A stretch of DNA of 64,000 bases, taken from positions 12,352 to 76,351 of the forward strand of contig JAYVHO010000011.1 in assembly GCA_043771175.1 (NCBI GenBank). The letters are read 5' to 3'. Position 1 is the stretch's first letter. Each line of letters starts with the position of its first letter. The position numbers and the translations under genes were made by a program. This document shows positions 1,291 to 62,243 of this stretch, one piece after another. Origin of the DNA: a bacterium (GTDB lineage Bacteria; Patescibacteriota; Minisyncoccia; Phycocordibacterales; UBA1006). The notes under the pieces were generated by a model. The model made no database searches. It was not told where the DNA came from and saw nothing but the letters and a program-made list of their open reading frames with translations.

Positions 1291-1318
1291 CCGTCATCCC
1301 GCCATTAGCGGGATCCAG
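1291..1318 (-). repeat. Intergenic hairpin repeat, consensus copy
   Basis: CCGTCATCCCGC-CATTAG-CGGGATCCAG, reverse complement of CTGGATCCCG..CGGGATGACGG; 88 nt upstream of tuf ATG. Confidence 0.85.
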
Positions 1319-1387
1319 TTTGGGTTTTCCTGTCTTTGCTTGATGGATGTTAGACTTTCCTGCCAAACCAACCAATACTTTATATAT

Positions 1388-1412
1388 GGTGTGATTACCG
1401 TCAGGTAATCAA
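1388..1412 (+). repeat. Possible degenerate partner of hairpin repeat
   Basis: TGGTGTGATTACC-GTCA-GGTAATCAA keeps GAT..stem..AT frame with changed but complementary stem. Confidence 0.3.
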
Positions 1413-1462
1413 TTATTGTAATAACGCGCGCGTTTTGGAATTTCTCCCAAAAACGTATCCAC

Positions 1463-1490
1463 ATAATACCATATAATTATTATTTTTCAA
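1463..1490 (-). promoter_or_regulatory. Candidate promoter upstream of long tuf leader
   Basis: Minus strand TTGAAA-16 nt-TGGTATTAT (extended -10). Confidence 0.4.
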
Positions 1491-1491
1491 G

Positions 1492-1523
1492 GAAAAAGGA
1501 GCCATTCGCTGCGCGAATGACTC
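1492..1523 (-). terminator. Intrinsic terminator after 1526..2014
   Basis: GAGTCATTCGC-GCA-GCGAATGGCTC hairpin then CTTTTTCC on minus strand. Confidence 0.6.
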
Positions 1524-1525
1524 TC

Positions 1526-2014
1526 TTATTCCGGTATTTCTTTATATGGATCTATATATATGGCTGAATCAGGTATGACTACCTCTTTCTCCTCGGTTGA
1601 CTGCCCTTCTTTTGGTTTTATAGGAACAATAAGAATGTGAGTTTTTTCATTCTCAATTTCTTCTTGTTCAAGTTTTTTTAAATGAATATCTAGATTCTGT
1701 TCAAGAATTTCATATCCCTTTACAATTCTTTGAAGTAATCTTTTGTCTAAATCATTGCAAAAAACCCTAATACTTGTTTCTGATAATTTTGTACGTTCTT
1801 TGATTTGATTATAAAAATTTGGAACATCAGAAACGTCAAGTAATAAATACCCAACTTCACGCACAATTTCAAGTGCATCTTCTTCAGTAAAACCATGTTC
1901 TTGGCAAATAAGCAATATGGTTTCAATCCAATCTGTTTCTTCAATGACAGCAGTATCAAGTAAATTTTTTGCTAAAAGTTTTTCATTGATTTTAGAAATT
2001 TCATCAGCAATCAT
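1526..2014 (-). CDS. Hypothetical acidic protein (162 aa)
   Basis: Intact ORF with own -10 box; no recognisable domain. Confidence 0.55.
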   Translation of the reverse strand: MIADEISKINEKLLAKNLLDTAVIEETDWIETILLICQEHGFTEEDALEIVREVGYLLLDVSDVPNFYNQIKERTKLSETSIRVFCNDLDKRLLQRIVKGYEILEQNLDIHLKKLEQEEIENEKTHILIVPIKPKEGQSTEEKEVVIPDSAIYIDPYKEIPE

Positions 2015-2023
2015 AGTACATCA

Positions 2024-2032
2024 AGTATATCA
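2024..2032 (-). promoter_or_regulatory. Extended -10 box TGATATACT
   Basis: 9 nt before ATG 2014; its TGA is the stop codon of 2030..5608. Confidence 0.5.
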
Positions 2033-5817: not shown

Positions 5818-6375
5818 ATGAAAAAATTACCTATAACTGTCCCCTCTGGTACAGATCTCGCTTTCGCCTTCTTTAAGAAGGCAACTACCGCATTGTTCAT
5901 GGTTATTTTTTTTGTTATTTTTGCTACTTCATGTAGTAAAAACGCCGACAATATAACCCCTATCACCGATTTAAATAACACAGTAAAAACTCAACCGTTA
6001 AAATTAGTTGAATCAAATTTTACATTTGATATACAAGCATATTTTATCGGAAAAAGAATTGATGATCAAACTATTGAGTACTTATATGATTTCAAAAGCA
6101 TGGGTGCGGCAAGTTGTACTGAAGAATTTACACTAATTACACGTTCATTGAGAATAAAAGTAAAACCAATTATTAAAACAACGACAAATATCGAAGGAAT
6201 ACCAATTCATATAGAATATTTTCCTGAAGAATTTGATGTATTTATTGATAATGCATTTTTTAATGAAGTATTTTATAAAAAAGCAAAATTTCTAATCATA
6301 ACTACAAAAAAAAGTAATATTGGTTCTAAATGCTTGCAAAGTTATTTTGTAAAAGACGGCATACCAATTTATTAA
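5818..6375 (+). CDS. Putative lipoprotein (185 aa)
   Basis: Hydrophobic N-terminus ending FATSC (lipobox-like Cys); opposite strand inside the envelope cluster. Confidence 0.55.
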   Translation: MKKLPITVPSGTDLAFAFFKKATTALFMVIFFVIFATSCSKNADNITPITDLNNTVKTQPLKLVESNFTFDIQAYFIGKRIDDQTIEYLYDFKSMGAASCTEEFTLITRSLRIKVKPIIKTTTNIEGIPIHIEYFPEEFDVFIDNAFFNEVFYKKAKFLIITTKKSNIGSKCLQSYFVKDGIPIY

Positions 6376-6431
6376 AAGTACTACGTCCTTTAAAAAACAG
6401 CAATTATTTGCTGTTTTTTAATGCACAATTT

Positions 6432-9400
6432 TTAATAAAATGAAACTTTAGATGGATCATAATCATTAATACTCTTACTAAAGTAGAAGGCGGAACAACT
6501 AAATCCTTTATATAATTCAGACACCTCTTTGGTAAATATACCTTTAATGGTGTTCCAATTCAGTACAGCGTTGAGAATAGGTATACCTGCAGCCCATGCA
6601 GATTTTGCACTCTTTTCAAGATCATCTTTACTAAGACCTTTGGAATCAAAATCTTTATCCCATTTTCTACCTAGAACCAAGCCTGTTTCTGCAGTTTGAT
6701 TATATGCAAGTGCACAATAGTATGCAATTTCACTATCCTTCATTTCAAGATCAAAATTTTGCGCGGATAAAGTATTTAATCTTTTTATTGCATCTTGCGT
6801 GTCTTTTTCATTTATTTTTGTTTGCACTGCATACTGTTCTGGAATATTGTATGTGATAGTTGTTGACTGTGAAGTACTACAACTATTAATTTGATCTTGT
6901 GTGGGAGTGCTACCTGGTGATAATTGATATTTACTTTGTAAGCATGATGTTAATGCTCCAAGATCTGAATAATTTATACCAGTTCCTGAGGTTGAAACGG
7001 AACCACTATTACCAAGTCCTGTCTTAACTAAAGTTATTGTTTGATTATTAAGTGTAAATTGTATGTCATTTCCCATTAATTCATCTCTTCCCTCGCCAGT
7101 TGAACCAAAATTTTGTTTCAAAAATTCTAAATCTTTGTTTTCATCAATATTATCCGTATTTATTGAATTATAGAAATTCATGACTATCGGTGAACCAGTA
7201 ATACTAAGAGGTAAATATTTTGATCTTTTACTTCCACAATCTTGAACAGATTTTTTTAATTGCTTATATAATGCAACTGTTTTTTTAGATTCGTAAGATG
7301 GGGAACCTTCATATCCAGTATCTGAAAAATATGGATAATATGAATAGATTTCGTTAATTAATGTAATTCTATCTTGTGCAGTTAATGCTTCACCTAACTC
7401 GTTCACCTCTGAGTCCCAAACTTCTTTGATTTTTTTAAGCCTTTCAAGGATAGTAAGCCTATTACTTAATGCCGAATTTAACGATTCCTTATTACTAAAC
7501 AAATTTTCGGACTGATTAACTAAACTTCTATATTTAAAATCATCTGCTGTTTTATAATATATATCTGTTGGTCGTATTTTTTGATTCATATAGTCAAGCA
7601 CCTTACCTGTACCTGAATCGAGTAAGCCTACAAAATTTTCTGCTTGATTAACTACTGTATCATCTTTATTGCTAAAAATTCTTGTCTGTACACGAGATCT
7701 TGCCCGTGTATATTTTGTAGTAAACCGTGCTTCCCATCCTTTATCCGGCCCTGGAACACATACATCTAACTTTCTAACAACATATATCGATTGTTCATTT
7801 AAGTTAATGATTGATTGAAATATGTTAATATCATTTTCAAGTTTTGTAATATTATTAAAACCACATTCCCCCATTGCACTCGACAGTTTTATTAGTTCTT
7901 CTGCATGTTCAACCATATCACCTTCAATTTGAGCTTTTTTCTTATCATCATTTGTTAATATTTTTTTTGGGTCTTCTATTCCTAACTTTTTCAAACATTC
8001 TATTGATTCTGGGGGTAAATCAGTAATCAACACTTGGCTTGCTTGTTCTCCTGTTATATATTGATCTTGATTAGTATCAGCATTTAATGCCTCAGGTGCT
8101 CTTTCTTGCAAATCAATCAAATCTTTATTCGAAATTACGTCAACTTTTTGTTTTATTGCGTCAATTGCTCCAGTTATTTTTTTCTTTGCCCATGCTTCGC
8201 CCAAAGGCACACCTTGCTTAATTACTTCATCTTTAAGTCTTGACACTGTATATGATAGCAAATCTTGCCATGTATCAACTTGTTGTGACTGTGTAATTGG
8301 GGTGTTAGTAACTTGTCTAAGCATTCCTTCGACAATAGTACCTGGTAGTGTGGTGGCATACACTGAGCACGTTTCTGCCAAATATTCTGGAGTGTATAAA
8401 CCTGGGTTAATACCATTTTGTTTAAATTCTACGGTTGGCAATTGAATAGGAGTAAATGTTTTTGGAGCAATTTGTCCTGGTGCCTGATATAAGTTTTCAT
8501 TAGAATAACCCCCATCACCATTTTGTGCATTAACCACAGTACTAAATGAAAGTTTTTCTTTCAAGAATTCTCCAAGATTATAGCCAAGTGTGCCCTTTAG
8601 TGTTGACTGCTGTGAAGCGTCGTCAGTTTTTGGAAGTGGGTCGGTTGCTTTTGGTGCACGTGGTTGCACCTTTGCTTTAAGTTTTAAACAAGTTTTTTGA
8701 GATTGAAAACCTTGATTGTTTGCAAGTTCTTGGGATAATTCTACCCTTTTTGCTAATAACTTTGTATAAATATCTTGTTGTGTATTAACATATTTACCAA
8801 GTAAATTATTATTCTCTTTTGTTGAAAGACTATATTTTGTCCAAAAATTTTTAAGGTTTTCTTTTCTAATTTTTATTTCATTTTCAGAGTTTCCATATCC
8901 TGCTCCATTTACAAAATATTTCCATTTGGTTTTATCTTTTAATATACTGCCTTCCAATGTATTAATTAGTTTTTGGTTTGGGTTTGTTGTAACGCCGGTA
9001 TAGTTTGAAACAAGACCCAAGACTACTTGCTTGGCGTAATATGAAGTTGGCTCTGCTATTTCTTTATTGATAAATGCATCCAACTCATCTCTAAACTGAG
9101 TTCGTTTAAGTTGCTCATAGGTGAGTTCTGTGTTTTGAACAAAAGATGGTTTCCCCTTAAAACCTGAGTACGCCCATGAAACTGTCTCTTGTATTGTTTT
9201 ATCTAGAAATGACTGTGCTAACTTAATAGCAATTGTTTTAAGAACTCCATTATTAAAGAATTCTTTTACTTCTATAACTTTTGATGTGGAACTGTTTGCA
9301 ACTTCAACCGGCTGCAATACTGCATTAAAAAAATCTTGGAATTGAGCTTCTGCCATTAAGTCTTTTTGAGTTCCCATAATACAAAAACTACAGACAATTA

Positions 9401-16905: not shown

Positions 16906-16935
16906 TTTAGCTGGATCTCCGCTTGCGGCGAATGA

Positions 16936-18210
16936 CTATAGATTTCCAAGCTCCAAATATGCATCAACTTTCTTGATAACATCAGTGATTACGTTAACCG
17001 CAATCAAAACTGATGTTCCTCCAATTGCAAAGAGGGCCATATTGGTAGCGTTTTGTACAATAACGGGAAGTACTGCAATGATCCCCAAGAATACGGCACC
17101 GAATACCGTAATTCGAGTAAGCACCTTTCCAATATATTCTGCCGTGTCTTCTCCTGGGCGAACGCCTGGGATAAACGCACCATTCTTTTGAAGATTTTCT
17201 GACATCGCTTCTACATCAACGGTAACCGCCGTGTAAAAAAATGTAAAGATTACTACTAAAAGAAAATATACTACCGGATACCAAATTTCTGTTTGAGAAA
17301 AATTAGTAAACGCTGTTGAAATTTTATACAGTGTTCCTGTGGTTGAAGATCCAACAATTAATTTAAGAATAAATTGTGGGAACAACAATATTGCTGGAGC
17401 AAAGATAATAGGCATTACTCCTGTCATGTTGATACGAAGAGGAATGTAACTGGCAACTCCTCCAAACATGGTTCCACTGCGCACTGCTTTGGCGTACGTT
17501 ATAGGAATGGGACGTTCTGCTTCTGTTACATAGGTAATACCTGCAATAATAACAAGAAGGAGAAGGGTAATTCCAATATAAAGTGGTAACATTTCTGGAG
17601 AATAGGTTTGAACTGCTTGAGAAACAACTCGTGGAAGTGATGCAACAATACCGGCAAATACCAACATTGATGTTCCATTTCCAATTCCGTATTCGTTCAA
17701 GAGTTCTCCTATCCACATAATAAGCATTGAACCAGCTGCCACAATAAGCATGTTGGTCATCATTACCATGGGTGTTAAGTTTGGAATTACTCCTTGTTTT
17801 GAAAGAAGAAGTAATAATGCCAAACCTTGAAGTAGTGCAATAGGAACGGTTGCAAGACGAGTAAAACTATTGAATTTCTTTCGTCCAATACTTCCTTCTT
17901 CGTGATACATCTTTTTAAGTGATGGAATCATCACCGTCATAAGTTGTAAAATAATTGAAGCGGTAATATATGGCCCAACTCCAATCATTCCAAGAGAAAG
18001 GGTTGAAAGACCTCCTCCTGAAAAGATATTAAGAAGTCCGAGGAATTGATTCGCGTTCAAGAAGTTTTGAATTTGCGTGGTGTCAATTCCAGGAATTGGG
18101 ATATTTGAAAGAAACCGAAGAGCAAAGAAACCAATCAAAATAGCCAAGAGTTTTAAGAGAATCCTTCTATCTTGAAACATTGCGGTAATTTTTGCTATGG
18201 CTGTATTCAT
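16936..18210 (-). CDS. secY: Preprotein translocase subunit SecY
   Basis: 424 aa, 10-TM SecY pattern, position after rplO. Confidence 0.96.
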   Translation of the reverse strand: MNTAIAKITAMFQDRRILLKLLAILIGFFALRFLSNIPIPGIDTTQIQNFLNANQFLGLLNIFSGGGLSTLSLGMIGVGPYITASIILQLMTVMIPSLKKMYHEEGSIGRKKFNSFTRLATVPIALLQGLALLLLLSKQGVIPNLTPMVMMTNMLIVAAGSMLIMWIGELLNEYGIGNGTSMLVFAGIVASLPRVVSQAVQTYSPEMLPLYIGITLLLLVIIAGITYVTEAERPIPITYAKAVRSGTMFGGVASYIPLRINMTGVMPIIFAPAILLFPQFILKLIVGSSTTGTLYKISTAFTNFSQTEIWYPVVYFLLVVIFTFFYTAVTVDVEAMSENLQKNGAFIPGVRPGEDTAEYIGKVLTRITVFGAVFLGIIAVLPVIVQNATNMALFAIGGTSVLIAVNVITDVIKKVDAYLELGNL

Positions 18211-18222: not shown

Positions 18223-18672
18223 TTATTCTGTAATAATACCAGAAGCAGCAATAATTGCATCATGTGCAGCTTTTGAGATTTCAATATCCTCAAACGTAAG
18301 TTTTTTGGTTATTGTTCCATATGAAAGGAGTTTTATAGACTTCGTACGAAGTTCTTTAAAACTAATGATTCCTTTTTCATACAAAGTGATTGGATTTACG
18401 GTTTCTCCGGCGTTGTAGAATCTTTCTACTGAAGAAAGGTTAACCGCATGAGGACGTGCACGGTAGGCGCTTTGACTTGAACGTCCATTGGTACTTTGAC
18501 CACGGAGCTTAGGCAATCGTTTAATAATGTCACGCATTTCTGGACGCATTTTTGCTCCAGCTCGGGCAGTTTGTCCTTTTCCTCCTCGTCCTGAAGTTTT
18601 ACCGCGCTTTCCTCCTCGTCCTACGCGTTTAGCGTCGATTTGGTTGGTTGATCGTTTAATGGTGTTTAACAT
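18223..18672 (-). CDS. rplO: 50S ribosomal protein L15
   Basis: GRGGKRGKTSGRGGKGQ motif; operon position. Confidence 0.94.
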   Translation of the reverse strand: MLNTIKRSTNQIDAKRVGRGGKRGKTSGRGGKGQTARAGAKMRPEMRDIIKRLPKLRGQSTNGRSSQSAYRARPHAVNLSSVERFYNAGETVNPITLYEKGIISFKELRTKSIKLLSYGTITKKLTFEDIEISKAAHDAIIAASGIITE

Positions 18673-18680
18673 ACATTGAC

Positions 18681-19430
18681 TTATCGGTTAGGGGAACGAC
18701 TGTCGCGCATTTGACGTCCTTTTGCTTCTTCATCTCCTTCTGTGTACGCGGTCATTTTTGGTGCTCCGCGACTGATAATGAAAGGCTCCAGAGCTTTAAT
18801 AGTTGCGCGAGCAATGTTAAGACTGTTCTTTGATGGTGAAATTACTTTTCCGGTAAGATCTTGGATTCCTGCGAATTCCATAACCGTACGAAGTGATGAT
18901 CCCGCCACTAGTCCACGTCCATAGTTTGGACGAAGCTCAATTCGTGCTGAGTTTGACTTAGCAGAAACTGAGTGTTCAATAGAATGTTCATTGGTAAGCT
19001 TAAGAGTAACCATGTTCTTTCGAGCATCGTTATACGCTTTATCAATAGCTAAAGCAGTATCTTGTCCTTTTCCAACTCCAACTCCCACTGATCCTTTTTT
19101 GTTTCCAATAATTAAGGTAATTGAGAAACTAAATCGGCGTCCTCCTTTTACTACACGAGTAACACGACGAGCTGAGATCATTTTTTGATCAAATTCAGGC
19201 TTAACTTTTTCACGAGTCATTTTGCCTTTTGCTCCTCTTTTATCGCCATCTTTAGAAATACGAGCGCGTCCTGCACCTGCTGATCCACGTGGACCACCTG
19301 ATTGTGGACGGCGGCCACCTGGTGCTTGCGCGCGAGGTGCTGAAGATTGTGCAGGGGCAGCTGATGTAACAGGAGCAACTGGTGCTGCCGCTACAACTTC
19401 TGCATTGTTTGTTGTTTGTGATTCTTCCAT
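18681..19430 (-). CDS. rpsE: 30S ribosomal protein S5 with long Ala/Pro/Gly/Arg-rich N-terminal extension
   Basis: RVTRVVKGGRRFSF core; start ATG 19430 one nt after rplR stop; only 8 nt to rplO, so no rpmD. Confidence 0.93.
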   Translation of the reverse strand: MEESQTTNNAEVVAAAPVAPVTSAAPAQSSAPRAQAPGGRRPQSGGPRGSAGAGRARISKDGDKRGAKGKMTREKVKPEFDQKMISARRVTRVVKGGRRFSFSITLIIGNKKGSVGVGVGKGQDTALAIDKAYNDARKNMVTLKLTNEHSIEHSVSAKSNSARIELRPNYGRGLVAGSSLRTVMEFAGIQDLTGKVISPSKNSLNIARATIKALEPFIISRGAPKMTAYTEGDEEAKGRQMRDSRSPNR

Positions 19431-20759: not shown

Positions 20760-20945
20760 TTACCAAGATGACTTTCTAACCCCAGGCAGCATTCCTTCGT
20801 TTGCGAGTTCGCGGAAACAAATGCGGCAAAGGTCAAAATCACGTAGGTATCCTCTTCCACGTCCACAACGGAAACATCGATTTTTCTCACGAGAAGAAAA
20901 CTTTTGTTTCTTGAGGGAACGTGCAACTACTGACGTTTTTGACAT
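20760..20945 (-). CDS. rpsZ: 30S ribosomal protein S14, zinc-type (type Z)
   Basis: 61 aa, CFRCGR..CRICFR Cys pairs. Confidence 0.93.
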
Positions 20946-20963: not shown

Positions 20964-21185
20964 CTACCATTCCGTCATCCCGTTGTATAACGGGATCCAA
21001 GTTTTATAGCATTTTCTGTAAGCGACCGAGTCGTAGCGCAGCTGCGACTCATTTAAATTTATAACGAAGACGATATCTTCATGATGAATAATATATTGGC
21101 ATATGGCACAAAGGTTACCCTTTGAAAACTTGGTACATTCCAAGCATCTTTGTGAGATTCCGCATGTAAAGATATGAAGCTCCAT
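20964..21185 (-). CDS. Possible small Cys-rich (CxxC..CxxC) protein or leader ORF
   Basis: MELHIFTCGISQRCLECTKFSKGNLCAICQ..; consensus promoter upstream; last 12 codons lie in the hairpin repeat. Confidence 0.3.
   Translation of the reverse strand: MELHIFTCGISQRCLECTKFSKGNLCAICQYIIHHEDIVFVINLNESQLRYDSVAYRKCYKTWIPLYNGMTEW
20972..21001 (-). repeat. Intergenic hairpin repeat, consensus copy
   Basis: CCGTCATCCCGTT-GTAT-AACGGGATCCAAG; 26 nt upstream of rpsZ ATG. Confidence 0.85.
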
Positions 21186-21204
21186 GGATCCTTCTTCGTT
21201 TGTA

Positions 21205-21233
21205 ATAGTAACAAATATAAAGGTTTTTGTCAA
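21205..21233 (-). promoter_or_regulatory. Sigma70-type promoter for small ORF and rpsZ sub-operon
   Basis: Minus strand TTGACA-17 nt-TACTAT. Confidence 0.6.
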
Positions 21234-21381
21234 AACACCCTCAATTATTACCTGTGTTGGTATATATATTAAAATGACATACACCAAATTTCGGGAAGTA
21301 AGAAGAAGATAATCAGTGACGATATTTATAGCATATAAAAAAGCAAACGTGCTGTTTTACTTTTTTGTTACCTTATGAATA

Positions 21382-21390
21382 TGTTAAAAT
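21382..21390 (+). promoter_or_regulatory. Extended -10 box TGTTAAAAT
   Basis: 6 nt before ATG 21397. Confidence 0.45.
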
Positions 21391-21396
21391 AATTCT

Positions 21397-22128
21397 ATGA
21401 AACCTCACCATAAAGAAAACACTATTTATACACTACTTCTGGTTGTAGTGCTGGGAATTATTGCGATATTTGCGGTCAATGCTGCCAAAGGACTTGATAG
21501 TATGCAACCACAAACACCAAAAGTATCTATCTCAACAACGTATCCTGAAATTATATCCAGCCCTCTTGCTGCACTCAATATTAACGAGTCAGACCTTACT
21601 GCTTGTACATCTGATCCTGCCACTTCAGATATTATTGACACTGACATATCAGAAGCTGGAGCCACGGGAACTCCACTGTTTTATATTTATTCTGACAAAA
21701 TTGCGTACAAAATTGTAGGAGCTATTCCAGCAGAAATGTTTACGGGCCTATTATCTGCAATTGAACAAGGACAAGACCTTCCCATTCCAGAAGATTCAAA
21801 AGACAACTTCCAAAAAGTTACATTTGATGACACTAATACATTTATTAAACAAAATGAAACTGACACACCACTACGAGTTGATTTAAAAACTCCAACAGTT
21901 ACTATTGTTGAATATGGTGATTTATCTTGCCCTGCGTGTAAGTATGCTCACTCAGAGCTTAAAAAAACATTAACTGACTCACCCAAAACACAATTTATAT
22001 TCCGCCATCATCCACTAACCAGTCTTCATGAATTTGCATACGATCAAGCAAAAGTTGCGATATGTTTGCAAAAAATCGCTGGACCAAAAATCTATTGGGA
22101 CTTTGTTGATCTTTCTTATAGAGAATAA
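21397..22128 (+). CDS. Membrane-anchored DsbA/thioredoxin-like protein, apparently permuted
   Basis: TM anchor; VEYGDLSCPACKY CxxC segment lies after a GATGTPLFYI..GAIPAEMF segment that normally ends the domain. Confidence 0.8.
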   Translation: MKPHHKENTIYTLLLVVVLGIIAIFAVNAAKGLDSMQPQTPKVSISTTYPEIISSPLAALNINESDLTACTSDPATSDIIDTDISEAGATGTPLFYIYSDKIAYKIVGAIPAEMFTGLLSAIEQGQDLPIPEDSKDNFQKVTFDDTNTFIKQNETDTPLRVDLKTPTVTIVEYGDLSCPACKYAHSELKKTLTDSPKTQFIFRHHPLTSLHEFAYDQAKVAICLQKIAGPKIYWDFVDLSYRE

Positions 22129-22143
22129 GTTTGCATTTATTTT

Positions 22144-22168
22144 AAAAACACCCTTTCGGGTGTTTTTA
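22144..22168. terminator. Bidirectional intrinsic terminator
   Basis: AAAAACACCC-TTTC-GGGTGTTTTTA. Confidence 0.7.
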
Positions 22169-22174
22169 AATTCG

Positions 22175-22207
22175 CCTGGATCCTGTTATTCAACAGGATG
22201 ACGGGCA
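22175..22207 (+). repeat. Intergenic hairpin repeat
   Basis: CCTGGATCCTGTT-ATTC-AACAGGATGACGGGCA (stem C>T with compensating G>A). Confidence 0.85.
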
Positions 22208-22221: not shown

Positions 22222-22794
22222 TTACTTCTTTTTCTTGGTTGTTTCTTCTTCTTTCTTGAACGGGAATCCAAGATAGGTAAAGAATGCGATTGCTTCTGCT
22301 TTATTTTTTGCTGATGAAACAATGGTGATTGACATACCAAAGATATTAACAAGATCTTCTTCAGAACATTCTGGGAACACATTGTTTTCTTTGAGTCCTA
22401 CCGTCATGTTCCCCATTTTATCTACCGTAGAGGTTGAAATCCCACGGAAATCTTTTGTTCGAGGGAAAGAAATGTGAACAAGTTTATCAAAAAACGAATT
22501 CATTGATTCTCCACGAAGGGTTACTGCATAACCAACTGCATCACCTTGACGAAGTTTAAACCCAGCGATTGATTTTTTAGCAAGACGCTTGGTTGGCTTT
22601 TGTCCAGTAATTTTTGCAAGTCGATCATCTACAATGGTGTGAATTTGTGGATAGGTTCTTCCACGTCGTCCAGTTCCTACATTGATTACAATCTTTTCAA
22701 GCTTTGGGGCTTGCATAACATTTTTGTAACCTTGTGTATCTTTTAAAGCAACAAATGCTTCTTTAACTCTTTGTTTTGTTTGTGTGATTGCCAT
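22222..22794 (-). CDS. rplE: 50S ribosomal protein L5
   Basis: L5 core with Lys/Glu C-terminal tail; operon position. Confidence 0.95.
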   Translation of the reverse strand: MAITQTKQRVKEAFVALKDTQGYKNVMQAPKLEKIVINVGTGRRGRTYPQIHTIVDDRLAKITGQKPTKRLAKKSIAGFKLRQGDAVGYAVTLRGESMNSFFDKLVHISFPRTKDFRGISTSTVDKMGNMTVGLKENNVFPECSEEDLVNIFGMSITIVSSAKNKAEAIAFFTYLGFPFKKEEETTKKKK

Positions 22795-22799
22795 ACAGA

Positions 22800-23108
22800 T
22801 TATTTAAGAGCTGATCCAGAAGCTTTAGTAACACGAACTTTTTTTCCGTCTTGTACGGCGTAAGAAATTCTTGTTGGCTTATCTGTTTTTGGATCTTTGA
22901 TCATTACATTTGATATGTGAAGAGAACCTTCAACCTTGCGGAGTTCTCCTTTTTCTCCTTCTGCTTTTCCTTTAAAAGCTTTTGTTTTGAGATTTAATCC
23001 TCCAACAATAACTCTTGAATCAGCAATGAGTACCTTAGTCACAATTCCGCTTTTTCCTTTTTCTGATCCAGTAGTTACAACTACTGAATCTCCTTTTTTG
23101 ATCTTCAT
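22800..23108 (-). CDS. rplX: 50S ribosomal protein L24
   Basis: MKIKKGDSVVVTTGSEKGKSG KOW motif. Confidence 0.94.
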   Translation of the reverse strand: MKIKKGDSVVVTTGSEKGKSGIVTKVLIADSRVIVGGLNLKTKAFKGKAEGEKGELRKVEGSLHISNVMIKDPKTDKPTRISYAVQDGKKVRVTKASGSALK

Positions 23109-23123
23109 ATAATTATATTAAGA

Positions 23124-23492
23124 TTAGAGTACTTCAGGGGCCAAAGACGCGATCTTTTGAAAACCACGTTCTTGTATTTCCCTTGGAATTGGACCGAAGA
23201 TACGACCACCTATCGGTTCATTCTTTTTATCGATAATTACCACAGCGTTTTCATCAAAACGGATGTATGAACCATCTGCTCTGCGGTATGCATTTTTAAT
23301 GCGAACAATTACTCCACGAGTAACTTGCTTTTTCTTTACGGTCTTTCGAGGTTCTGCTGACTTAATAGAAAGTACAACAATGTCTCCAAGTGATGCGTAT
23401 CGTCTTTTTGATCCTCCAAGAACTTTAAAAACTTTTCCAAGCTTTGCTCCTGAGTTATCTGCGATCATTACGTTTGTTCCAGCTTGAATCAT
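23124..23492 (-). CDS. rplN: 50S ribosomal protein L14
   Basis: [17 protein letters not shown] start, 122 aa. Confidence 0.96.
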
Positions 23493-23494
23493 AA

Positions 23495-23740
23495 TTACAC
23501 TTTTCCAATTACCACAAATGACTTATCTTTTGAAATTGGGCGAGATTCTTGAATAGAAACTTTATCTCCAACTTCGTAAGTATTTGCTTCATCGTGAGCT
23601 TTAAACTTTTTCGACTTTTTAAAGTATTTTTTATACTTTTCATGTTTTACGAATCGCTCAACTAAAACTACTACAGTTTTGTCCATCTTGTCAGAAACTA
23701 CAGTGCCTTTGAGGACTCGCTTTCCGAGTGAAGTGTCCAT
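23495..23740 (-). CDS. rpsQ: 30S ribosomal protein S17
   Basis: [23 protein letters not shown]; start ATG 23740. Confidence 0.93.
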
Positions 23741-23741
23741 A

Positions 23742-23903
23742 TTATTTATTGAGCAAAGTAAAATGTTGCGCAATAGATTTCTTCAAAACTCGCGTTTGCT
23801 TGGCTTTTGTTAAAGCGTCTGCAAATGATGTGCGAATTTTTGCAAGTTCAATCTTTTTTGCGTTAAATTCTTCTTTGGTTAGGGTTACAATTTCTTTTTT
23901 CAT
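23742..23903 (-). CDS. rpmC: 50S ribosomal protein L29
   Basis: 53-aa ORF missing from the track ([24 protein letters not shown]..) between rplP and rpsQ. Confidence 0.85.
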
Positions 23904-23907
23904 AAAA

Positions 23908-24333
23908 TTACATATCAGTAGATGACACGATTTTGACAGTTACTGGTAGTTTTGTTCCGGCTTTACGAAGAGCTTCTTTGGCGATTGCTGGAGTAACATT
24001 AGCTACTTCAAACAAAATTCGTCCTGGAAGTACTTCAAAACAATATCCTTCTGGGTTTCCTTTTCCTTTACCCATACCTACTTGGTCTGCTTTTTTGGTA
24101 ACAGGACGGTCTGGGAACACGCGGATCCAATAACGTCCAGTTTTTCCAATGGTTCGAGAAACTACTTTACGTGCAGACTCTATCTGGTTAGACATAATTC
24201 TTGCAGATGAAGTAGCTTTCAACCCAAAGTCTCCAAATTGTAGATCAATACCTCTGGTATCTACTACTTCTTTGTTAGCATTTCTTCTACTAACTTGCCA
24301 TCTTCGGTGTTTTACTTTTTTTGGAAATAACAT
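23908..24333 (-). CDS. rplP: 50S ribosomal protein L16
   Basis: MLFPKKVKHRR start; GKGNPEGY motif. Confidence 0.95.
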   Translation of the reverse strand: MLFPKKVKHRRWQVSRRNANKEVVDTRGIDLQFGDFGLKATSSARIMSNQIESARKVVSRTIGKTGRYWIRVFPDRPVTKKADQVGMGKGKGNPEGYCFEVLPGRILFEVANVTPAIAKEALRKAGTKLPVTVKIVSSTDM

Positions 24334-24338
24334 ACAAA

Positions 24339-25034
24339 TTAAGCGTTTTTATTGTTAGCAGGAGCAGCTGAGATAGTGTTTACTAAAGAATCTCCTTTAT
24401 AAATCCATACCTTAATTCCAATTACACCGTAGCTAAGATTTGCTCTTTCTCTTGAAAAATCAATATCAGCGCGGATAAACTGAAGCGGAATAGATCCTTT
24501 GTGAATTTCTTCAACACGGGCCATATCAGAACCACCAAGTCGACCTGATAATACAATACGAACTCCCTTAACTCCACGTGCCTGCATAACTTTTTCAGTC
24601 ATTTGCTTCATAACACGACGGAAGGTCATTCTCTTTTCAAGCATTTCTGCAATTGTTTGTCCAACAATAGCAGCATCTGCTTCAGGGTTTCCAACTTCAA
24701 GAATATCTAAAACGATCTCTTGTGGTTGTGGAAGCTTTTTTTTGCGGATGAATGTAGCAATGTCCTGACGGAGCTTTGTTACACCATCGCCTGATCGTCC
24801 AATTACCATTCCAGGTCTACCAGTTCTAATGATAAGTTTGGTTTGTTTTTGTGAACGTTCAAATTCAAGTGATGAAACTTGCATACCTTTCATTCTCTTT
24901 TGGAGAAATTCACGTACCAATACATCAATTTTAAGGAGTCTTGTGTACTCTTTTCTATCTTGTCCAAACCATCGTGATTTCCAATCGCGAAGTTCAACAA
25001 GTCGGTGAGCGTAGGGGTGAACAGAATGTGACAT
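24339..25034 (-). CDS. rpsC: 30S ribosomal protein S3
   Basis: HPYAHRL..KH domain..GRLGG pattern. Confidence 0.95.
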   Translation of the reverse strand: MSHSVHPYAHRLVELRDWKSRWFGQDRKEYTRLLKIDVLVREFLQKRMKGMQVSSLEFERSQKQTKLIIRTGRPGMVIGRSGDGVTKLRQDIATFIRKKKLPQPQEIVLDILEVGNPEADAAIVGQTIAEMLEKRMTFRRVMKQMTEKVMQARGVKGVRIVLSGRLGGSDMARVEEIHKGSIPLQFIRADIDFSRERANLSYGVIGIKVWIYKGDSLVNTISAAPANNKNA

Positions 25035-25039
25035 ACAAA

Positions 25040-25369
25040 TTATGCTTTAATTCCCAACTCAATCGCAATTTGAGAGGTTCTCTTGTTAATGCGTGAACCA
25101 CGACCAAACGCGCGTGCGCGCATTCGTTTAAGGGTAGGACCCTTATCTACGGTGATAGTTTTTACCACCAATTGATCAGCAGATACTTTGAAGTTATTCA
25201 GAGCGTTTGCTACAGCAGAATCAAGAAGTTTTTCAAGTGGCAATGCCGCTCGTTTAATTACTTGACGAAGTACAATTTTTGCTTGTTCCGTACTTTTACC
25301 TCTGATGGCATCGGCTACGAGGCGCACCTTACGAGGAGATTGACGGTAATTTGTGAGATAAGCTTTCAT
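25040..25369 (-). CDS. rplV: 50S ribosomal protein L22
   Basis: SPRKVRLVADAIRGK motif. Confidence 0.94.
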   Translation of the reverse strand: MKAYLTNYRQSPRKVRLVADAIRGKSTEQAKIVLRQVIKRAALPLEKLLDSAVANALNNFKVSADQLVVKTITVDKGPTLKRMRARAFGRGSRINKRTSQIAIELGIKA

Positions 25370-25371
25370 AC

Positions 25372-28329: not shown

Positions 28330-29079
28330 TTATTTTGTTAAATATTTTTTAACCCAATTTTTCTCTTCTTCTTCTGTGGTTACTTTTTTGAAAAATGCTT
28401 TTTTACCTTTTACGCGAGCTTCGCATGCCGCCCATGTGGTGTGTTTTTCATATACGCCATCTAAGATTGAAAGATACCATCCATTTTTTGAAGAGGATTT
28501 TGTTTTGTGAGCATGGCTGGACTGCGCTAGCGGCGCAGTGACGGATAAAAATAATTGTTCAATGGTGATTGAATATTTTGAAAGTGAACCTTCGAATAAT
28601 TTCACATTATCTTTTTTTGAAAATCCCTGAGCAATATCATTCACGCGTTCATTCCCCACTACGCCAACATGTCCGTCAACGTGAATATAATCTATCTGAA
28701 CTTTTTTAAAAAGTTCAAGTTCTTCAGAAAGTGAAGTCCACAATTCTTTATTTTTTACTTCACTTCCGGTACTGGTAACCCAACCTTTTTGCTTCCAACC
28801 TTTCATCCATTTGGTTACACCATTGCGCACATATTCAGAATCTAAATATACATATATATGTATATCTTTAGAAAGTGAAAGTTCAGATAGTTTTCTAATT
28901 CCTTCGAGCAGCGCCAAAAGTTCTGTTTCGTTGTTGGTGGTGTGACGTAAATGTTCACCCATCTCAAAAACTTTTGAAGATTTTGTATCTACTAAAAGTG
29001 TTCCCCATCCACCAGCACCTGGATTTCCTGAACATGCGCCGTCCGTATAGATAATAATATTTTGGATTTCTTTATTCAT
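28330..29079 (-). CDS. rnhA: Ribonuclease HI with C-terminal hybrid-binding (Cauli_VI-like) domain
   Basis: IYTDGACSGNPG..TNNETELLAL..DSEY..HVDGH..N RNase H motifs; C-terminal WYLSILDGVYEKHTTWAACEARVKGKKAFFKKV. Confidence 0.88.
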   Translation of the reverse strand: MNKEIQNIIIYTDGACSGNPGAGGWGTLLVDTKSSKVFEMGEHLRHTTNNETELLALLEGIRKLSELSLSKDIHIYVYLDSEYVRNGVTKWMKGWKQKGWVTSTGSEVKNKELWTSLSEELELFKKVQIDYIHVDGHVGVVGNERVNDIAQGFSKKDNVKLFEGSLSKYSITIEQLFLSVTAPLAQSSHAHKTKSSSKNGWYLSILDGVYEKHTTWAACEARVKGKKAFFKKVTTEEEEKNWVKKYLTK

Positions 29080-30825: not shown

Positions 30826-30903
30826 CCGTCATACCATTGTATAACGGTATCCAGTTTTCTTTTATTCCGCCTGGATCCCGTTATTCAACGGGATGACGAA
30901 CAG
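30826..30903. repeat. Inverted doublet of the hairpin repeat
   Basis: CCGTCATACCATTGTATAACGGTATCCAG, 12-nt spacer, CCGCCTGGATCCCGTTATTCAACGGGATGACGAACAG. Confidence 0.85.
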
Positions 30904-36946: not shown

Positions 36947-37057
36947 CCCGTACGTCATCTCGTTATATAACGAGAATCAGGCTATTTATTTCTGTTAATA
37001 TGCCCGGCATACCCTTTTGCAAAGTTGGATCCCGCCACTGGCGGGATGACAGACAGG
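36947..37057. repeat. Inverted doublet of the hairpin repeat
   Basis: CCCGTACGTCATCTCGTTATATAACGAGAATCAGG, 42-nt spacer, GTTGGATCCCGCCACTGGCGGGATGACAGACAGG. Confidence 0.8.
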
Positions 37058-37092: not shown

Positions 37093-37100
37093 ACATATAT

Positions 37101-37682: not shown

Positions 37683-37687
37683 ATCCT

Positions 37688-37813
37688 CATTCGTCTTACT
37701 GTTGCATAACAGTATCCAGTATTAAAAGAGCACAAGCAATTGTGTTCTTTTTTCTATCGTACGAAATTAGGAATTTGCTGGATCCCGTGATTCAACGGGA
37801 TGACGGGCAGTGG
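37688..37813. repeat. Inverted doublet of the hairpin repeat flanking the clpP terminator
   Basis: CATTCGTCTTACTGTTGCATAACAGTATCCAG, 56 nt, TGCTGGATCCCGTGATTCAACGGGATGACGGGCAGTGG. Confidence 0.8.
37727..37753 (+). terminator. Intrinsic terminator after clpP
   Basis: AGAGCACAA-GCAA-TTGTGTTCTTTTTT. Confidence 0.75.
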
Positions 37814-37936: not shown

Positions 37937-39454
37937 ATGAATTTACTTCTCATCTTAGGAGGAGTGATTACCGGAGGAATTATTGGTTATTTTATATGGT
38001 TCGTACGATATACAACCCTTTCAAAAAATACCGATATCGATATTCAAACAAAATCACTCAGAGCCAAACAAGAAATACAAAATTTGCTTGATGAAGCAAA
38101 AGAAAAAGCCGAAAAAATTATAGAAGACGCTCGCGAAAAGCAAGAAAAACGAGAGCAAGAACTCATTTCTATTCAAGAAAAATACCTTCAAAAAGAAGAA
38201 GTTTTAGAAAACAGAAGAGTAGAAATTGACACCTTTGAAAAATCCCTTAAAGAAAAAGTTGAAGAGATTGAATCGCTTAAAGTTGAGGCTCGCGAAAAGA
38301 TCAATGAACGAAAAGAAAAAATTGAAGAGATTTCAAAAATGTCATCTGAAAAAGCCCTTGAACTCCTCAAAACGGAAGTTTCTAAAAACAATGAAGAAGA
38401 TCTTGCAAAATTGCATGCAACCTTTGAATTGAATAAAAAAGATGAACTTCAAAAGCGCGCTCAAGATATTTTAGTTTCTACTATTCATCGCCTAGCATCT
38501 TCAACAGCATCAGAAATCACCATCACAACCGTACAAATTCCCAATGATGAAATTAAAGGAAAAATTATAGGACGTGAAGGAAGAAATATCAGAACCTTTG
38601 AACGAACTCTTGGTGTGGAATTACTAGTTGATGACACCCCTGGCGCTATCATAATCTCTTCATTTGACCCGATTCGTCGCCAAATTGCACGCGTAGCACT
38701 GGAAAATCTCATTCATGATGGCCGGATTCAACCTGCAAAAATTGAAGAATTTGCAGAAAAAGCAAAGGAAGAAATTCACACTATTATTAAACAAAAAGGC
38801 GAAGAAGCATGCTTAGAACTGGGAATTTATAATTTTGACCCACGACTGGTAGCTATTATTGGAAGACTCTTTTTTAGAACGAGTTACGGACAAAATGTAC
38901 TTAATCACAGCATAGAAATGGCGCACTTGGCGGGAATGTTGGCAGAAGAACTAGGAGCTGATGTATACATTTGTAAAGCAGCGGCTCTGGTTCATGATAT
39001 TGGAAAAGCGCTTGACCATGAATTTCAAGGTTCACATATTGAAATTGGAATTAAAGTATTACGCAAATTTGGTGCTGATGAACGAATCATTACTGCCATG
39101 AAGTCTCATCATGATGATTATCCTCACGAAACCATAGAAGCGGTAATTATTCACACCTGTGACATGATCTCTGGATCTCGCCCTGGGGCACGCAGAGATA
39201 CCGTAGAAAACTATATTAAACGCCTTACTGACTTAGAAAATATTGCACATAATACTCCGGGTATTGATAAAGCTTACGCATTGTCTGCGGGGCGTGAAAT
39301 CCGCGTGTTTGTAAATCCTGTTGAGGTTTCTGACTTGGATAGTTTCCATATTGCACGCAATTTGGCCAAGGCTATTGAGTCAAACCTTAATTACCCTGGT
39401 GAAATTAAAATCACTTTGATACGAGAAAACAGAATTATTGAATACGCTCGGTAA
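37937..39454 (+). CDS. rny: Ribonuclease Y
   Basis: N-terminal TM, coiled coil, KH (GKIIGREGRNIR), HD (HSIEMA..LVHDIGK); start ATG 37937. Confidence 0.94.
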   Translation: MNLLLILGGVITGGIIGYFIWFVRYTTLSKNTDIDIQTKSLRAKQEIQNLLDEAKEKAEKIIEDAREKQEKREQELISIQEKYLQKEEVLENRRVEIDTFEKSLKEKVEEIESLKVEAREKINERKEKIEEISKMSSEKALELLKTEVSKNNEEDLAKLHATFELNKKDELQKRAQDILVSTIHRLASSTASEITITTVQIPNDEIKGKIIGREGRNIRTFERTLGVELLVDDTPGAIIISSFDPIRRQIARVALENLIHDGRIQPAKIEEFAEKAKEEIHTIIKQKGEEACLELGIYNFDPRLVAIIGRLFFRTSYGQNVLNHSIEMAHLAGMLAEELGADVYICKAAALVHDIGKALDHEFQGSHIEIGIKVLRKFGADERIITAMKSHHDDYPHETIEAVIIHTCDMISGSRPGARRDTVENYIKRLTDLENIAHNTPGIDKAYALSAGREIRVFVNPVEVSDLDSFHIARNLAKAIESNLNYPGEIKITLIRENRIIEYAR

Positions 39455-44708: not shown

Positions 44709-44790
44709 CCTTGTCCATCATATCGCTTGAAACGGTATCCAGATTTTTTTCAATTTCGTCAGGATCCCACTTTTTCAGTGGGATGACAAA
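44709..44790. repeat. Inverted doublet of the hairpin repeat
   Basis: CCTTGTCCATCATATCGCTTGAAACGGTATCCAG, 14 nt, CGTCAGGATCCCACTTTTTCAGTGGGATGACAAA. Confidence 0.75.
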
Positions 44791-47355: not shown

Positions 47356-47381
47356 AAACCCCGCATTTTTGCGGGTTTTTA
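47356..47381 (+). terminator. Intrinsic terminator after rpsO
   Basis: AAAACCCCGC-ATTTTT-GCGGGTTTTT. Confidence 0.8.
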
Positions 47382-47392: not shown

Positions 47393-47424
47393 CTTCGTCA
47401 TCCTGTTGTATAGAAGGATCCAGG
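47393..47424 (-). repeat. Intergenic hairpin repeat (partly degenerate)
   Basis: CTTCGTCATCCTGTTGTATAGAAGGATCCAGG; possible second degenerate copy near 47443..47492. Confidence 0.7.
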
Positions 47425-49494: not shown

Positions 49495-49525
49495 CGCTGG
49501 ATCCCGCTAGGGCGGGATGACGTGG
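49495..49525 (+). repeat. Intergenic hairpin repeat, consensus copy
   Basis: CGCTGGATCCCGC-TAGG-GCGGGATGACGTGG; 41 nt upstream of pnp ATG. Confidence 0.85.
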
Positions 49526-60616: not shown

Positions 60617-60645
60617 TACTCGACAAGACTATCATTTCAATTATC

Positions 60646-60654
60646 TGGTATAAT
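60646..60654 (+). promoter_or_regulatory. Perfect extended -10 promoter TGGTATAAT
   Basis: 30 nt after pilB stop; no ORF of meaningful size follows. Confidence 0.6.
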
Positions 60655-60660
60655 AATGAA

Positions 60661-60871
60661 GTACACAGAAATGTATATTAAAAACCTACACATGAGTTTC
60701 TTAGCCATCCCATCCTCTAACAGATGCTTTGATAGTAGATGAGGATAAACACAGCCGAGGCCACATTGTCCTTTCTAATGTCTCAGACTTTCGCCGATGA
60801 CTAAGAAACTCACACATAGGTTATATGTATGTTCACCAGAAATTCCTCTTTATTTCAATAAAGGGGTTTTT
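60661..60871 (+). ncRNA. Candidate ~210-nt structured small RNA, unclassified
   Basis: Bounded by TGGTATAAT promoter and terminator; 12-bp perfect long-range helix 60693..60704 / 60801..60812 plus ACCT/AGGT extension. Confidence 0.4.
60845..60871 (+). terminator. Intrinsic terminator of candidate sRNA
   Basis: CCTCTTTA-TTTCAA-TAAAGGGG then TTTTT. Confidence 0.7.
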
Positions 60872-60942
60872 CTGTCACAATTAAGTTATATAAGATTGAA
60901 TATATCCTAGCATGGATTGTTTTATTTGTCAACTAAACAGTC

Positions 60943-60951
60943 TGCTATACT
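60943..60951 (+). promoter_or_regulatory. Extended -10 box TGCTATACT
   Basis: 13 nt before ruvB ATG. Confidence 0.5.
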
Positions 60952-60964
60952 TTACTAATTATAT

Positions 60965-61933
60965 ATGGCAAATCAAAAAGATGTTTCAAAAATTTCAGAT
61001 CATGACCTACGCCCTACATCATGGACTGACTATATTGGTCAAGACATGATTAAAAAAAATCTTTTAATTTTACTAGAAGCTGCCAGCTCACGCAGTGTTT
61101 CGCCTGATCATATTTTATTGTATGGACAACCAGGACTTGGTAAAACAACTCTGGCAAATTTGATTGCAAAACATTTAGGCACTAATTTAATTCAAACCAC
61201 GGGACCAGTAATTGAAAAGGCAAGTGATTTGACCAGTACATTGTCATCATTATCAGCTGGTGATGTGCTATTTATTGATGAAATTCACCGCTTACCAAAA
61301 AGCGTAGAAGAAATTTTATATCCTGCAATGGAATCTGGCACACTGGACATTATGGTTGGAAAAGGTCCATCAGCACGTACCGTACATATTGAACTGCAGC
61401 CATTCACCTTAATTGGCGCAACCACACGACTATCAGAACTCTCTTCACCACTAAGAAGTCGCTTCTCGGGGGGAATTTTTAAGCTTGAGCCGTATACTAC
61501 TGACGAATTAAGTCAGATCCTTATGCGCACAGCACAAATGTTACAACTACCCCACGACCATGAGGTGTTACAACATATTGCCAAGCGCTCACGCAGAACC
61601 CCAAGAACCGCAAATTATTATCTGCGTCGCGTTGGAGACTTGGCTCATATTCGTGGGATTAACATTACAGAAGATATTATCAATGAAGCGTTAACCATGT
61701 TAGGGATTTCTGAAGAAGGATTGACATTAGTTGATCAAGAATATATCCGCGCAGTACGTGATAAGTTTTCTGGTGGTCCGGTTGGAGTAAAAACTATTGC
61801 AGCGTCAATTGGTGAAGAATCCAGAACCGTTGAAGATGTTATTGAACCGTACCTGTTGTATGAAGGAATTATTGAAAAAACTTCATCAGGAAGAAAACTT
61901 ACCACACGTGGGTATGGGTTTAATATAAAGTAA
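60965..61933 (+). CDS. ruvB: Holliday junction branch migration helicase RuvB
   Basis: GQPGLGKTTLA Walker A, LFIDEIHRL, TTR sensor motifs. Confidence 0.96.
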   Translation: MANQKDVSKISDHDLRPTSWTDYIGQDMIKKNLLILLEAASSRSVSPDHILLYGQPGLGKTTLANLIAKHLGTNLIQTTGPVIEKASDLTSTLSSLSAGDVLFIDEIHRLPKSVEEILYPAMESGTLDIMVGKGPSARTVHIELQPFTLIGATTRLSELSSPLRSRFSGGIFKLEPYTTDELSQILMRTAQMLQLPHDHEVLQHIAKRSRRTPRTANYYLRRVGDLAHIRGINITEDIINEALTMLGISEEGLTLVDQEYIRAVRDKFSGGPVGVKTIAASIGEESRTVEDVIEPYLLYEGIIEKTSSGRKLTTRGYGFNIK

Positions 61934-61946
61934 TATTACCCACATG

Positions 61947-62243
61947 CCCGTCGTCCCGCTATATAACGAGTGACGTCATTTTTAGATGGATACAACTTTG
62001 TATTTCTCTTTTAATATAACCATCTCCACCAAATAAACATTTCTTTCCAAACTTCATCCTAAACGGCAAGCGAGATTAAAGAGAAATGCAGATGATAAAT
62101 CTAAGCATTTCTCTTAATAATCGAGTCCGAGCCTAGGGCGGTAGACCCACTGGTTATGGAAGTGATTTGTGGAGGTTAAGGCTTTAATGGGTAAGTACAA
62201 AAATAAATAGCCTGGATCCCGTTCTTCAACGGGATGACGGACA
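61947..62243. repeat. Widest inverted doublet of the hairpin repeat, enclosing a 234-nt structured spacer
   Basis: Degenerate CCCGTCGTCCCGCTATATAACGAGTGACG at 61947..61975; consensus GCCTGGATCCCGTTCTTCAACGGGATGACGGACA at 62210..62243. Confidence 0.7.
61982..62209 (+). other. Structured non-coding spacer (possible sRNA or MITE interior)
   Basis: GAGAAATGC-15 nt-GCATTTCTC hairpin with extension; outer CTCCAC(C)AAAT / ATTTGTGGAG pairing; only ORFs of 16 aa or fewer. Confidence 0.3.

Follow-up and report, generated by a model that had tools for sequence, protein, structure and literature searches.

Dispersed intergenic hairpins in a Paceibacteria genome probably belong to the CGTC-tagged REP family

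The window analysed here, the whole 64,000-nucleotide stretch of contig JAYVHO010000011.1 (positions 12,352 to 76,351, assembly GCA_043771175.1), carries ribosomal protein genes together with recJ, clpP, rny, pnp, ruvB and yebC, and a family of short hairpin repeats is scattered among them. A first-pass annotation, made from the sequence alone, had described such a dispersed family and had recommended a covariance model for tracing it. We built a covariance model (R1) with an 8-bp stem on an alignment of 15 of the copies listed at that stage, and searched the whole window with filters off. The family was borne out window-wide: R1 finds 16 copies, namely all 10 of those described as well conserved, each in place, 5 of those described as degenerate (30826, 36947, 37688, 44709 and 61947) and 1 that is new. 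The 15 earlier copies score 31-50 bits (E 3e-11 to 4e-6) and the new match, 28513-28549(-), scores 25.6 bits (E = 1e-4); matches below it are the palindromic core on the opposite strand, or noise. A sixth degenerate copy, at 1388, was rejected as a member because it has no R1 match and is an unrelated palindrome: window 1388-1407, upstream of tuf, is a perfect 20-nt palindrome TGATTACCGTCAGGTAATCA, followed by CGCGCGCG, without relation to the repeat family. Simple string counts agree with the model, as GGATCCCGY..RCGGGATGAC has 6 exact matches in the window compared with 0 in 100 dinucleotide-preserving shuffles, and GGGATGACG has 6 matches compared with 0.12 expected. The same contig carries three further copies, immediately to the left of the window, giving 19 distinct copies in the 82 kb examined (contig positions 3473-85250 of a 99.8-kb metagenome scaffold, i.e., the window and two 10-kb extensions), a density of ~230 per Mb.

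Each unit is ~40 nt long and consists of a leader yTGyC, an unpaired CGTC tag, a stem of 7-8 bp, a loop of 4-5 nt and an unpaired CCAG tail, in the form (yTGyC)CGTC-AT-CCCGTT-loop4-AACGGG-AT-CCAG. The consensus of the 19 copies, read on the CGTC strand, is CTTGTC CGTC ATCCCGTT GTAT AACGGGAT CCAGGC. The main type combines an 8-bp stem with a 4-nt loop, while the CCCGC type has a 7-bp stem and a 5-nt loop. The units of the window are given below in CGTC orientation, which is complementary to the strand on which the consensus was first written; bit scores are those of R1, energies refer to the hairpin formed by single-stranded DNA (ssDNA), and "SRM string" denotes the published search string for the Ssn-related motifs (SRM) that typically flank the genes of Ssn nucleases (Chenal et al. 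2025, Nat Commun 16:2388; PMC11893778).

1292..1318, plus strand: single SRM/CGTC-REP unit, CGTC ATCCCGC CATTA GCGGGAT CCAG, between a 162-aa gene and tuf; 43.7 bits, E 1.6e-9; hairpin -7.7 kcal/mol, z -4.6; fits the SRM string.
20973..20999, plus strand: unit preceding rpsZ by 27 nt; together with the unit at 22177 it makes up a wide pair, of which it is the left member; 49.8 bits; hairpin -7.7 kcal/mol, z -4.5.
22177..22203, minus strand: unit 18 nt after the rplE stop, with the compensated stem CCTGTT/AACAGG; 49.1 bits.
28518..28543, minus strand: probable in-frame intragenic unit, CGTC ACTGCGC CGCTA GCGCAGT CCAG; 25.6 bits, E 1.2e-4, the weakest member; hairpin -8.3 kcal/mol.
30827..30853, plus strand: left half of the tags-out (head-to-head) pgk-recJ doublet; 46.8 bits; its ATG yields a false RecJ start.
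30872..30898, minus strand: right half of the pgk-recJ doublet, after an 18-nt spacer; 49.4 bits.
36953..36979, plus strand: left half of the tig-clpP doublet, stem TCTCGTT/AACGAGA, tail TCA; 41.2 bits.
37026..37051, minus strand: right half of the tig-clpP doublet, after a 46-nt spacer, TGTC tag, stem CCCGCC/GGCGGG; 41.1 bits.
37692..37718, plus strand: unit that lies 9 nt past the stop of clpP and forms the left half of the clpP-rny doublet; 41.5 bits.
37779..37805, minus strand: right half of the clpP-rny doublet, after a 60-nt spacer; 44.9 bits; source of a false 570-aa Rny call.
44716..44741, plus strand: degenerate unit with a CATC tag, left half of the doublet between a methyltransferase gene and xth; 36.3 bits.
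44760..44788, minus strand: right half of the methyltransferase gene-xth doublet, after an 18-nt spacer, TGTC tag, stem CCCAC/GTGGG, 5-nt loop; 33.5 bits; fits the SRM string.
47396..47422, plus strand: single unit just after the rpsO terminator (47360-47375); 39.8 bits.
49497..49522, minus strand: single unit upstream of pnp, 7-bp stem, 4-nt loop; 31.3 bits.
61949..61975, plus strand: decayed unit 15 nt after the ruvB stop, 3' arm and tail degraded, in a loose pair with the unit at 62213; 33.4 bits.
62213..62239, minus strand: unit upstream of yebC, nearest to the consensus; 49.9 bits; hairpin -7.6 kcal/mol.
16911..16937, minus strand: possible relic AGTCATTCGCCGCAAGCGGAGATCCAG (AGTC AT...AT CCAG) in the adk-secY gap, uncertain; it fits the published SRM regular expression only, with no R1 match at E <= 10, and may be a decayed unit.

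Across the 19 distinct copies, the unpaired GTC of the tag is conserved more strongly than the stem (G 95%, T 100%, C 100%, preceded by C or T). The stem starts with an A-T and then a T-A pair (A 89%, T 95%), and the 3' tail following the palindrome begins with C (89%), C (95%) and A (89%). Stem cells are paired in 89.5% of cases and both-side changes are found in 7 of the 8 pairs. Compensatory cells number 17 as compared with 4.4 +/- 1.6 in shuffles, none of 500 of which reaches 17, in an alignment that had been fitted to R1. When the 3' partner is slid by 1-3 columns, pairing falls to 20-45%. Folded as ssDNA, single units reach -7.6 to -9 kcal/mol (z -3.2 to -4.6). These results uphold the earlier claim that the stems change in a compensatory manner between fixed unpaired flanks. 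The accompanying suggestion, that selection acts on a single-strand hairpin rather than on a duplex site, agrees with current knowledge, because Ssn nucleases act only on ssDNA (PMC11893778). Among known RNA families, a search of Rfam returned only 4 tRNAs in the window at the gathering threshold and nothing relevant at E <= 1 in 36850-37950.

On a corrected gene map, 15 of the 16 units lie in the non-coding 10.8% of the sequence (binomial P = 4.7e-14), and units are present even between tuf, rpsJ and rplC, and also after rplE. The statement that every copy is intergenic thus holds for all but the new unit, which is located within an RNase HI-like gene (28330-29079, minus strand), in its linker; this linker is 4 aa longer than in relatives. 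The linker encodes the in-frame SRM-like hairpin LSVTAPLAQSSHA, recalling the insertions of Rickettsia palindromic elements (RPE), and the protein also has an extra conserved C-terminal domain, GWYLSI.DG..EKHTTW..CEARVKGK..FKKV. Five close inverted pairs are present, with tail-to-tail gaps of 18, 46, 60, 18 and 237 nt, and in all five a plus unit is followed by a minus unit so that the tags point outward; a further tags-out pair, 20973/22177, is 1.2 kb wide. Six inverted doublets had been proposed, of which the inverted layout stands but only five are close. There is no signal of a replication-strand bias, with 8 units on the plus strand, 8 on the minus strand and the single units also mixed. 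Terminator-like hairpins occur at 37724-37755, between the halves of the clpP-rny doublet, and at 36905-36935, just before the tig-clpP doublet; the clpP terminator is directly 3' of the gene in relatives and is found here between the doublet halves. The false N-terminal extensions of reading frames attributed to the units do occur: identical DNA yields rny calls of either 570 aa or 505 aa, and RecJ, at 586 aa, exceeds the 540-550 aa of relatives.

The first-pass annotation knew of no described repeat family with this sequence. That view has to be given up, as the units match the CGTC-tagged REP type CGTC-1 (PMC3733652) and the dRS3/NTS and SRM sequences (PMC11893778). We consider it likely that the repeats of the window belong to the CGTC-tagged REP superfamily, type CGTC-1, a family that also takes in Neisseria dRS3/NTS, Rickettsia RPE-6 and SRM. 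The survey of Di Nocera, De Gregorio & Rocco (2013, BMC Genomics 14:522; PMC3733652) describes CGTC-1 units, which include dRS3 and RPE-6, as having a CGTC, TGTC or CCTC tag, an 8-bp stem and a 4-nt loop. CGTC REPs have loops of 4-5 nt, a stem whose first two positions are complementary A and T, and an unpaired CCA tail; head-to-head dimers (tags outside) predominate, tail-to-tail dimers are rare and head-to-tail dimers negligible; and they are mostly intergenic, with "no dedicated transposase" (PMC3733652). The tag, the A-T/T-A stem base, the loop, the CCA tail, the head-to-head dimers and the intergenic location are all found in the window, as is the want of an adjacent transposase, and the probable unit in the RNase HI-like linker would correspond to the occasional in-frame intragenic units of CGTC-1 REPs. 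There are two differences. The inner stem is AT-richer here (CCCGTT/AACGGG) than the usual CCCGGC/GCCGGG, and the host, a member of the Paceibacteria in the Candidate Phyla Radiation (CPR), lies outside the phyla of the survey, in which CGTC repeats were found only in Proteobacteria, Chlorobi, Bacteroidetes, Spirochaetes and Thermotogae (PMC3733652). Patescibacteria are unmentioned in this survey and in PMC11893778, and a literature search found no relevant paper. RPE-6, itself of type CGTC-1 (PMC3733652), has the same tag and hairpin, and Rickettsia palindromic elements have an in-frame seat inside genes of a small-genome symbiont, to which the probable linker unit may be compared; however, they are 100-150 bp long and often intragenic, whereas the units described here are ~40 nt long and intergenic in 15 of 16 cases.

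In a scan of one genome per species, at least 119 genome loci contained the motif CTGGATCCCG-N6-9-CGGGATGACG, and inverted doublets as well as tandem arrays were seen among them; nearly all of the loci are from Alpha-, Beta- and Gammaproteobacteria, with Binatia and one Microgenomates metagenome-assembled genome in addition, and the typical unit among the genome loci listed is CGTCATCCCGGC-loop-GCCGGGATCCAG. The Microgenomates contig (bacterium UTCPR1, L016 3781-3943, 45% GC) has three clustered units, all of the GC-rich type. If this contig is correctly binned, occurrence in the CPR may not be unique to the organism studied here.

A nuclease partner of this family is known from Neisseria. Chenal et al. 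redefined about half of the dRS3 copies as a 28-nt NTS, CGTCATTCCCGCGMAVGCGGGAATCYRG, and showed that the NTS is the target of SsnA, a single-domain GIY-YIG protein of 94 aa, which binds it and cleaves immediately 5' of it, acting only on ssDNA and only on the NTS strand, with no action on dsDNA or RNA (PMC11893778). Ssn has thousands of homologs across phyla (PMC11893778). A protein-database search gave at least 8000 matches to the Ssn family at E < 1e-10, and none of the best 120 of these is from the CPR. Mutagenesis of SsnA substrates showed that the three nucleotides 5' of the palindrome are critical for cleavage and that the C just 3' is critical for binding (PMC11893778); the most conserved positions in the window, the GTC of the tag and the Cs after the palindrome, are these same nucleotides. 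The window units also share with dRS3/NTS and SRM the architecture CGTCAT-palindrome-ATCYRG, and their density is comparable to or above that of pathogenic Neisseria, although the window is without large NIME-like clusters. The role of the system in Neisseria is the restriction of transforming ssDNA.

A direct connection is provided by other organisms. The exact window-type motif CGTCATCCCGTT-N4-AACGGGATCC was found in 62 metagenome loci, which total 391 kb and range from 38 to 64% GC; none is from a close relative of the window organism, the best ribosomal-protein identity being 72%. Local jackhmmer searches detected a ~95-aa single-domain GIY-YIG open reading frame (ORF; PF01541) in 5 of these 62 loci and, among the genome loci (at least 119), in 2. 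Units matching R1 lie immediately on both sides of these ORFs with their tags outward, as in L121 (6208+/[6253-6558]/6586-) and L188 (1068+/[1113-1412]/1416-). This physical linkage shows that units of the window type are, by function, SRM.

The best matches of ClpP and L5 are from Paceibacterota/Parcubacteria, and the host is a Paceibacteria bacterium of the CPR. In the window, rplO comes directly after rpsE (18223-19379), and rpmD, the gene for L30, is missing from the junction. CPR bacteria typically lack L30, and the missing rpmD is consistent with this assignment. No units are present in the syntenic loci of five relatives (L124/L125, L126/L127, L197/L198, L195/L196 and L199/L200). The ClpP proteins of L124/L125 and L126/L127 are 76-79% identical to that of the window. 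The tig-clpP gap is ~30 nt in relatives as compared with 204 nt here. L195 is the closest relative available (L5 95% identical) and has an empty site after rplE, in line with the earlier suggestion that filled and empty sites be compared in sister genomes. The unit at 22177..22203 is a recent, clean 46-nt insertion relative to this site, GATTTCTTGCTTGCC-CGTC...CCAG-GCG, located between TAATTC and ATTTAAAAACACCC, the alignment being ambiguous over a GA(A)TTT motif at both junctions. It follows that single units, and not only doublets, have recently inserted in this lineage. The expansion of the family is recent and lineage-specific, because syntenic relatives are without copies and the 46-nt empty site is clean. 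All other contigs of the same organism, from other samples, are 99.7-100% identical and thus uninformative about filled versus empty sites. Short contigs of the same population begin or end inside units (L003, which ends at L001 10600; L132, which starts at L130 9390; and L004), indicating that the repeats break short-read assemblies.

In the mechanism that we propose, the active form is the ssDNA hairpin on the CGTC strand. A small single-domain GIY-YIG nuclease (Ssn) of this family's kind binds the hairpin and cuts a few nucleotides 5' of it, and ssn genes typically lie between two units with their tags outward. This genome would encode, or would recently have encoded, a matching Ssn, and copies may be cut while single-stranded, in the course of replication, repair or DNA uptake. 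Cutting by Ssn, directly or via repair, may then spread the copies, and any effects on the mRNAs of ribosomal-protein operons would be by-products. The family anatomy, the stem covariation, the intergenic restriction and the tags-out doublets are directly supported steps of this scheme, as are the linkage of window-type units to Ssn-like genes elsewhere and the recent, lineage-specific insertion of single units here. One biological reading is that an AT-rich Ssn/SRM specificity class, overlooked by existing search strings, has lately spread to ~230 copies per Mb in an ultra-small, episymbiotic CPR genome, where it could gate the recombination or salvage of incoming ssDNA, or else that the repeats proliferate without a resident ssn; we put this forward tentatively, as a possible but doubtful account.

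Several observations weigh against the explanation that we favor. No ssn-like gene, nor any GIY-YIG ORF, was found in contig positions 3473-85250 by regular expressions, by jackhmmer with Ssn-like ORFs as seeds or in Pfam lists. SsnA is inactive when the sequence of the palindrome is altered but the hairpin is kept (PMC11893778), so the stem variants of the window may be poor substrates for one enzyme. The published SRM string, HGTCWYN(0-2)YYVSBRHN(0-5)WNVSBRGN(0-2)RNCYNB, fits only 2 of the 16 copies, although this string is a hand-made search aid from 29 genomes and not a functional definition. The other 14 copies miss it by one stem position, because CCCGTT and CCCGCC stems place a pyrimidine (T or C) where the string has a purine (R). 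Among SRM-rich genomes, 81% have an ssn homolog and 19% are without one (PMC11893778).

The absence of an ssn gene from the 82 kb also favors a different history, in which the family entered horizontally alongside an ssn cassette, later lost, leaving orphan relics that are neutral or that serve as recombination or integration targets of other enzymes. Copies 36953, 44716 and 61949 are visibly decaying, dRS3 is a known integration target, being used by the IS110-type recombinase of the Nf prophage (PMC11893778), and the presence of the same unit in very different organisms, of 38-64% GC, implies horizontal spread. However, most copies are near the consensus, with 89-100% conservation at the functionally critical positions, and the insertion that is absent from L195 argues for recent activity. 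There is no IS110-type gene in contig positions 3473-85250, no IS110-type or phage integrase gene adjoins any copy, and the sole tyrosine recombinase in the window is a conserved XerC/D-like gene that is also present in repeat-free relatives. We regard relics of this kind as fairly unlikely. The units could instead act mainly at the RNA level, as 3' stabilising hairpins, RNase III or other processing sites, or terminators selected via neighbouring transcripts. Hairpins of E. coli REPs stabilise upstream mRNA (cited in PMC3733652). Many copies here are 0-60 nt from stop codons or inside operons (tuf-rpsJ-rplC, rplE, clpP) and must therefore be transcribed, so that RNA-level side effects are possible. 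Yet relatives with the same gene order do without the units, which are therefore not a required regulatory feature; every doublet presents both orientations; the units have no T-run, no unit was called as terminator-like, and genuine terminators adjoin the units and are not replaced by them. Moreover, the GTC tag, which an RNA stability hairpin does not need, is conserved above the stem, SsnA does not bind the RNA form (PMC11893778) and there is no Rfam match. A primarily RNA-level function is, in our estimation, improbable.

Two further explanations were raised by the first-pass annotation, and neither is supported. One was mobilisation by a RAYT (IS200/IS605-type Y1) transposase, which would be encoded elsewhere in the genome. 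The GTAG-tagged REP/REPIN elements of E. coli and Pseudomonas are similar in form, being short tagged hairpins that are intergenic, arranged in inverted doublets and recognised as ssDNA, and the pgk-recJ doublet (30821-30904) can alternatively fold as one long hairpin of -18 kcal/mol, as REPINs do. The tag, however, is CGTC and not GTAG, and the partner differs: GTAG elements are associated with an HUH Y1 transposase, whereas the flanked gene in every linked locus is a GIY-YIG nuclease. Y1 transposase genes do occur in CGTC-bearing species, but the survey found none with CGTC units on its flanks (PMC3733652). No Y1 transposase gene is listed by Pfam for the 82 kb, which agrees with the earlier remark that the window has no RAYT-like gene, and the empty site in L195 shows insertion of one unit and not of a doublet. 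A RAYT origin is thus very improbable. The other explanation was that the units form the terminal inverted repeats of a Correia-like miniature inverted-repeat transposable element (MITE); we also considered a composite carrying cargo such as the 1.2-kb dsbA-like segment (20973-22177), where a gene lying between tags-out units breaks up the adjacency of rplE and rpsZ that is otherwise universal. The unit-bearing gaps resemble one another over no more than 27-32 nt and the spacers inside the doublets show no mutual relationship, and on these grounds a Correia-like MITE was rejected for this window. The composite was rejected because the dsbA-like gene is in the same place in the unit-free L197 and L195. 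We find an origin of this type scarcely credible.

Some features of the surrounding genome deserve mention. The dsbA/thioredoxin-like gene (21397-22128, plus strand) is on the opposite strand to its neighbors and interrupts the junction of rplE (22222-22794) and rpsZ (20760-20945) in the spc operon; as L197/L198 and L195 have the same arrangement and no units, the gene is ancestral in the clade and has no connection with the repeats. The ribosomal protein genes form two separate blocks, with tuf-rpsJ-rplC-rplD-rplW-rplB (L128 10813-15155, left of the window) located ~25 kb from rpsS-rplV-rpsC-...-rplE (window 22222-25728), and large genes (1192, 1004 and 1349 aa) without Pfam domains are found near the former block. 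The genes rnpA, dnaA and dnaN (L130 14920-18434) are ~4.5-8 kb right of the window end, and the window is therefore origin-proximal. GC skew on the plus strand is negative over 1-32 kb, where most genes are on the minus strand. No repeat units are present in the 10 kb around dnaA.

In summary, our results leave the picture of what this repeat family is unchanged but extend its range to the Candidate Phyla Radiation. As dRS3 and CGTC REPs, the family had long been a puzzle, and its connection with site-specific ssDNA nucleases was made only lately. The CPR/Paceibacteria host, the density in a tiny genome and an AT-rich stem class that escapes the SRM string are new, as is the probable in-frame copy in an RNase HI-like linker. 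Neisseria-like density can be reached in a ~1 Mb genome, even inside ribosomal-protein operons; the published SRM string under-counts AT-rich variants; and the units introduce spurious start codons and lengthen gene calls, as for rny, recJ, yebC and pnp. If the units do gate incoming ssDNA, they would do so in CPR bacteria, organisms dependent on DNA uptake. If a matching Ssn exists, its CCCGTT/AACGGG target would represent a further specificity class in an enzyme family proposed as ssDNA tools, while proliferation without a resident ssn, if true, would point to a novel mobilisation route for CGTC repeats.

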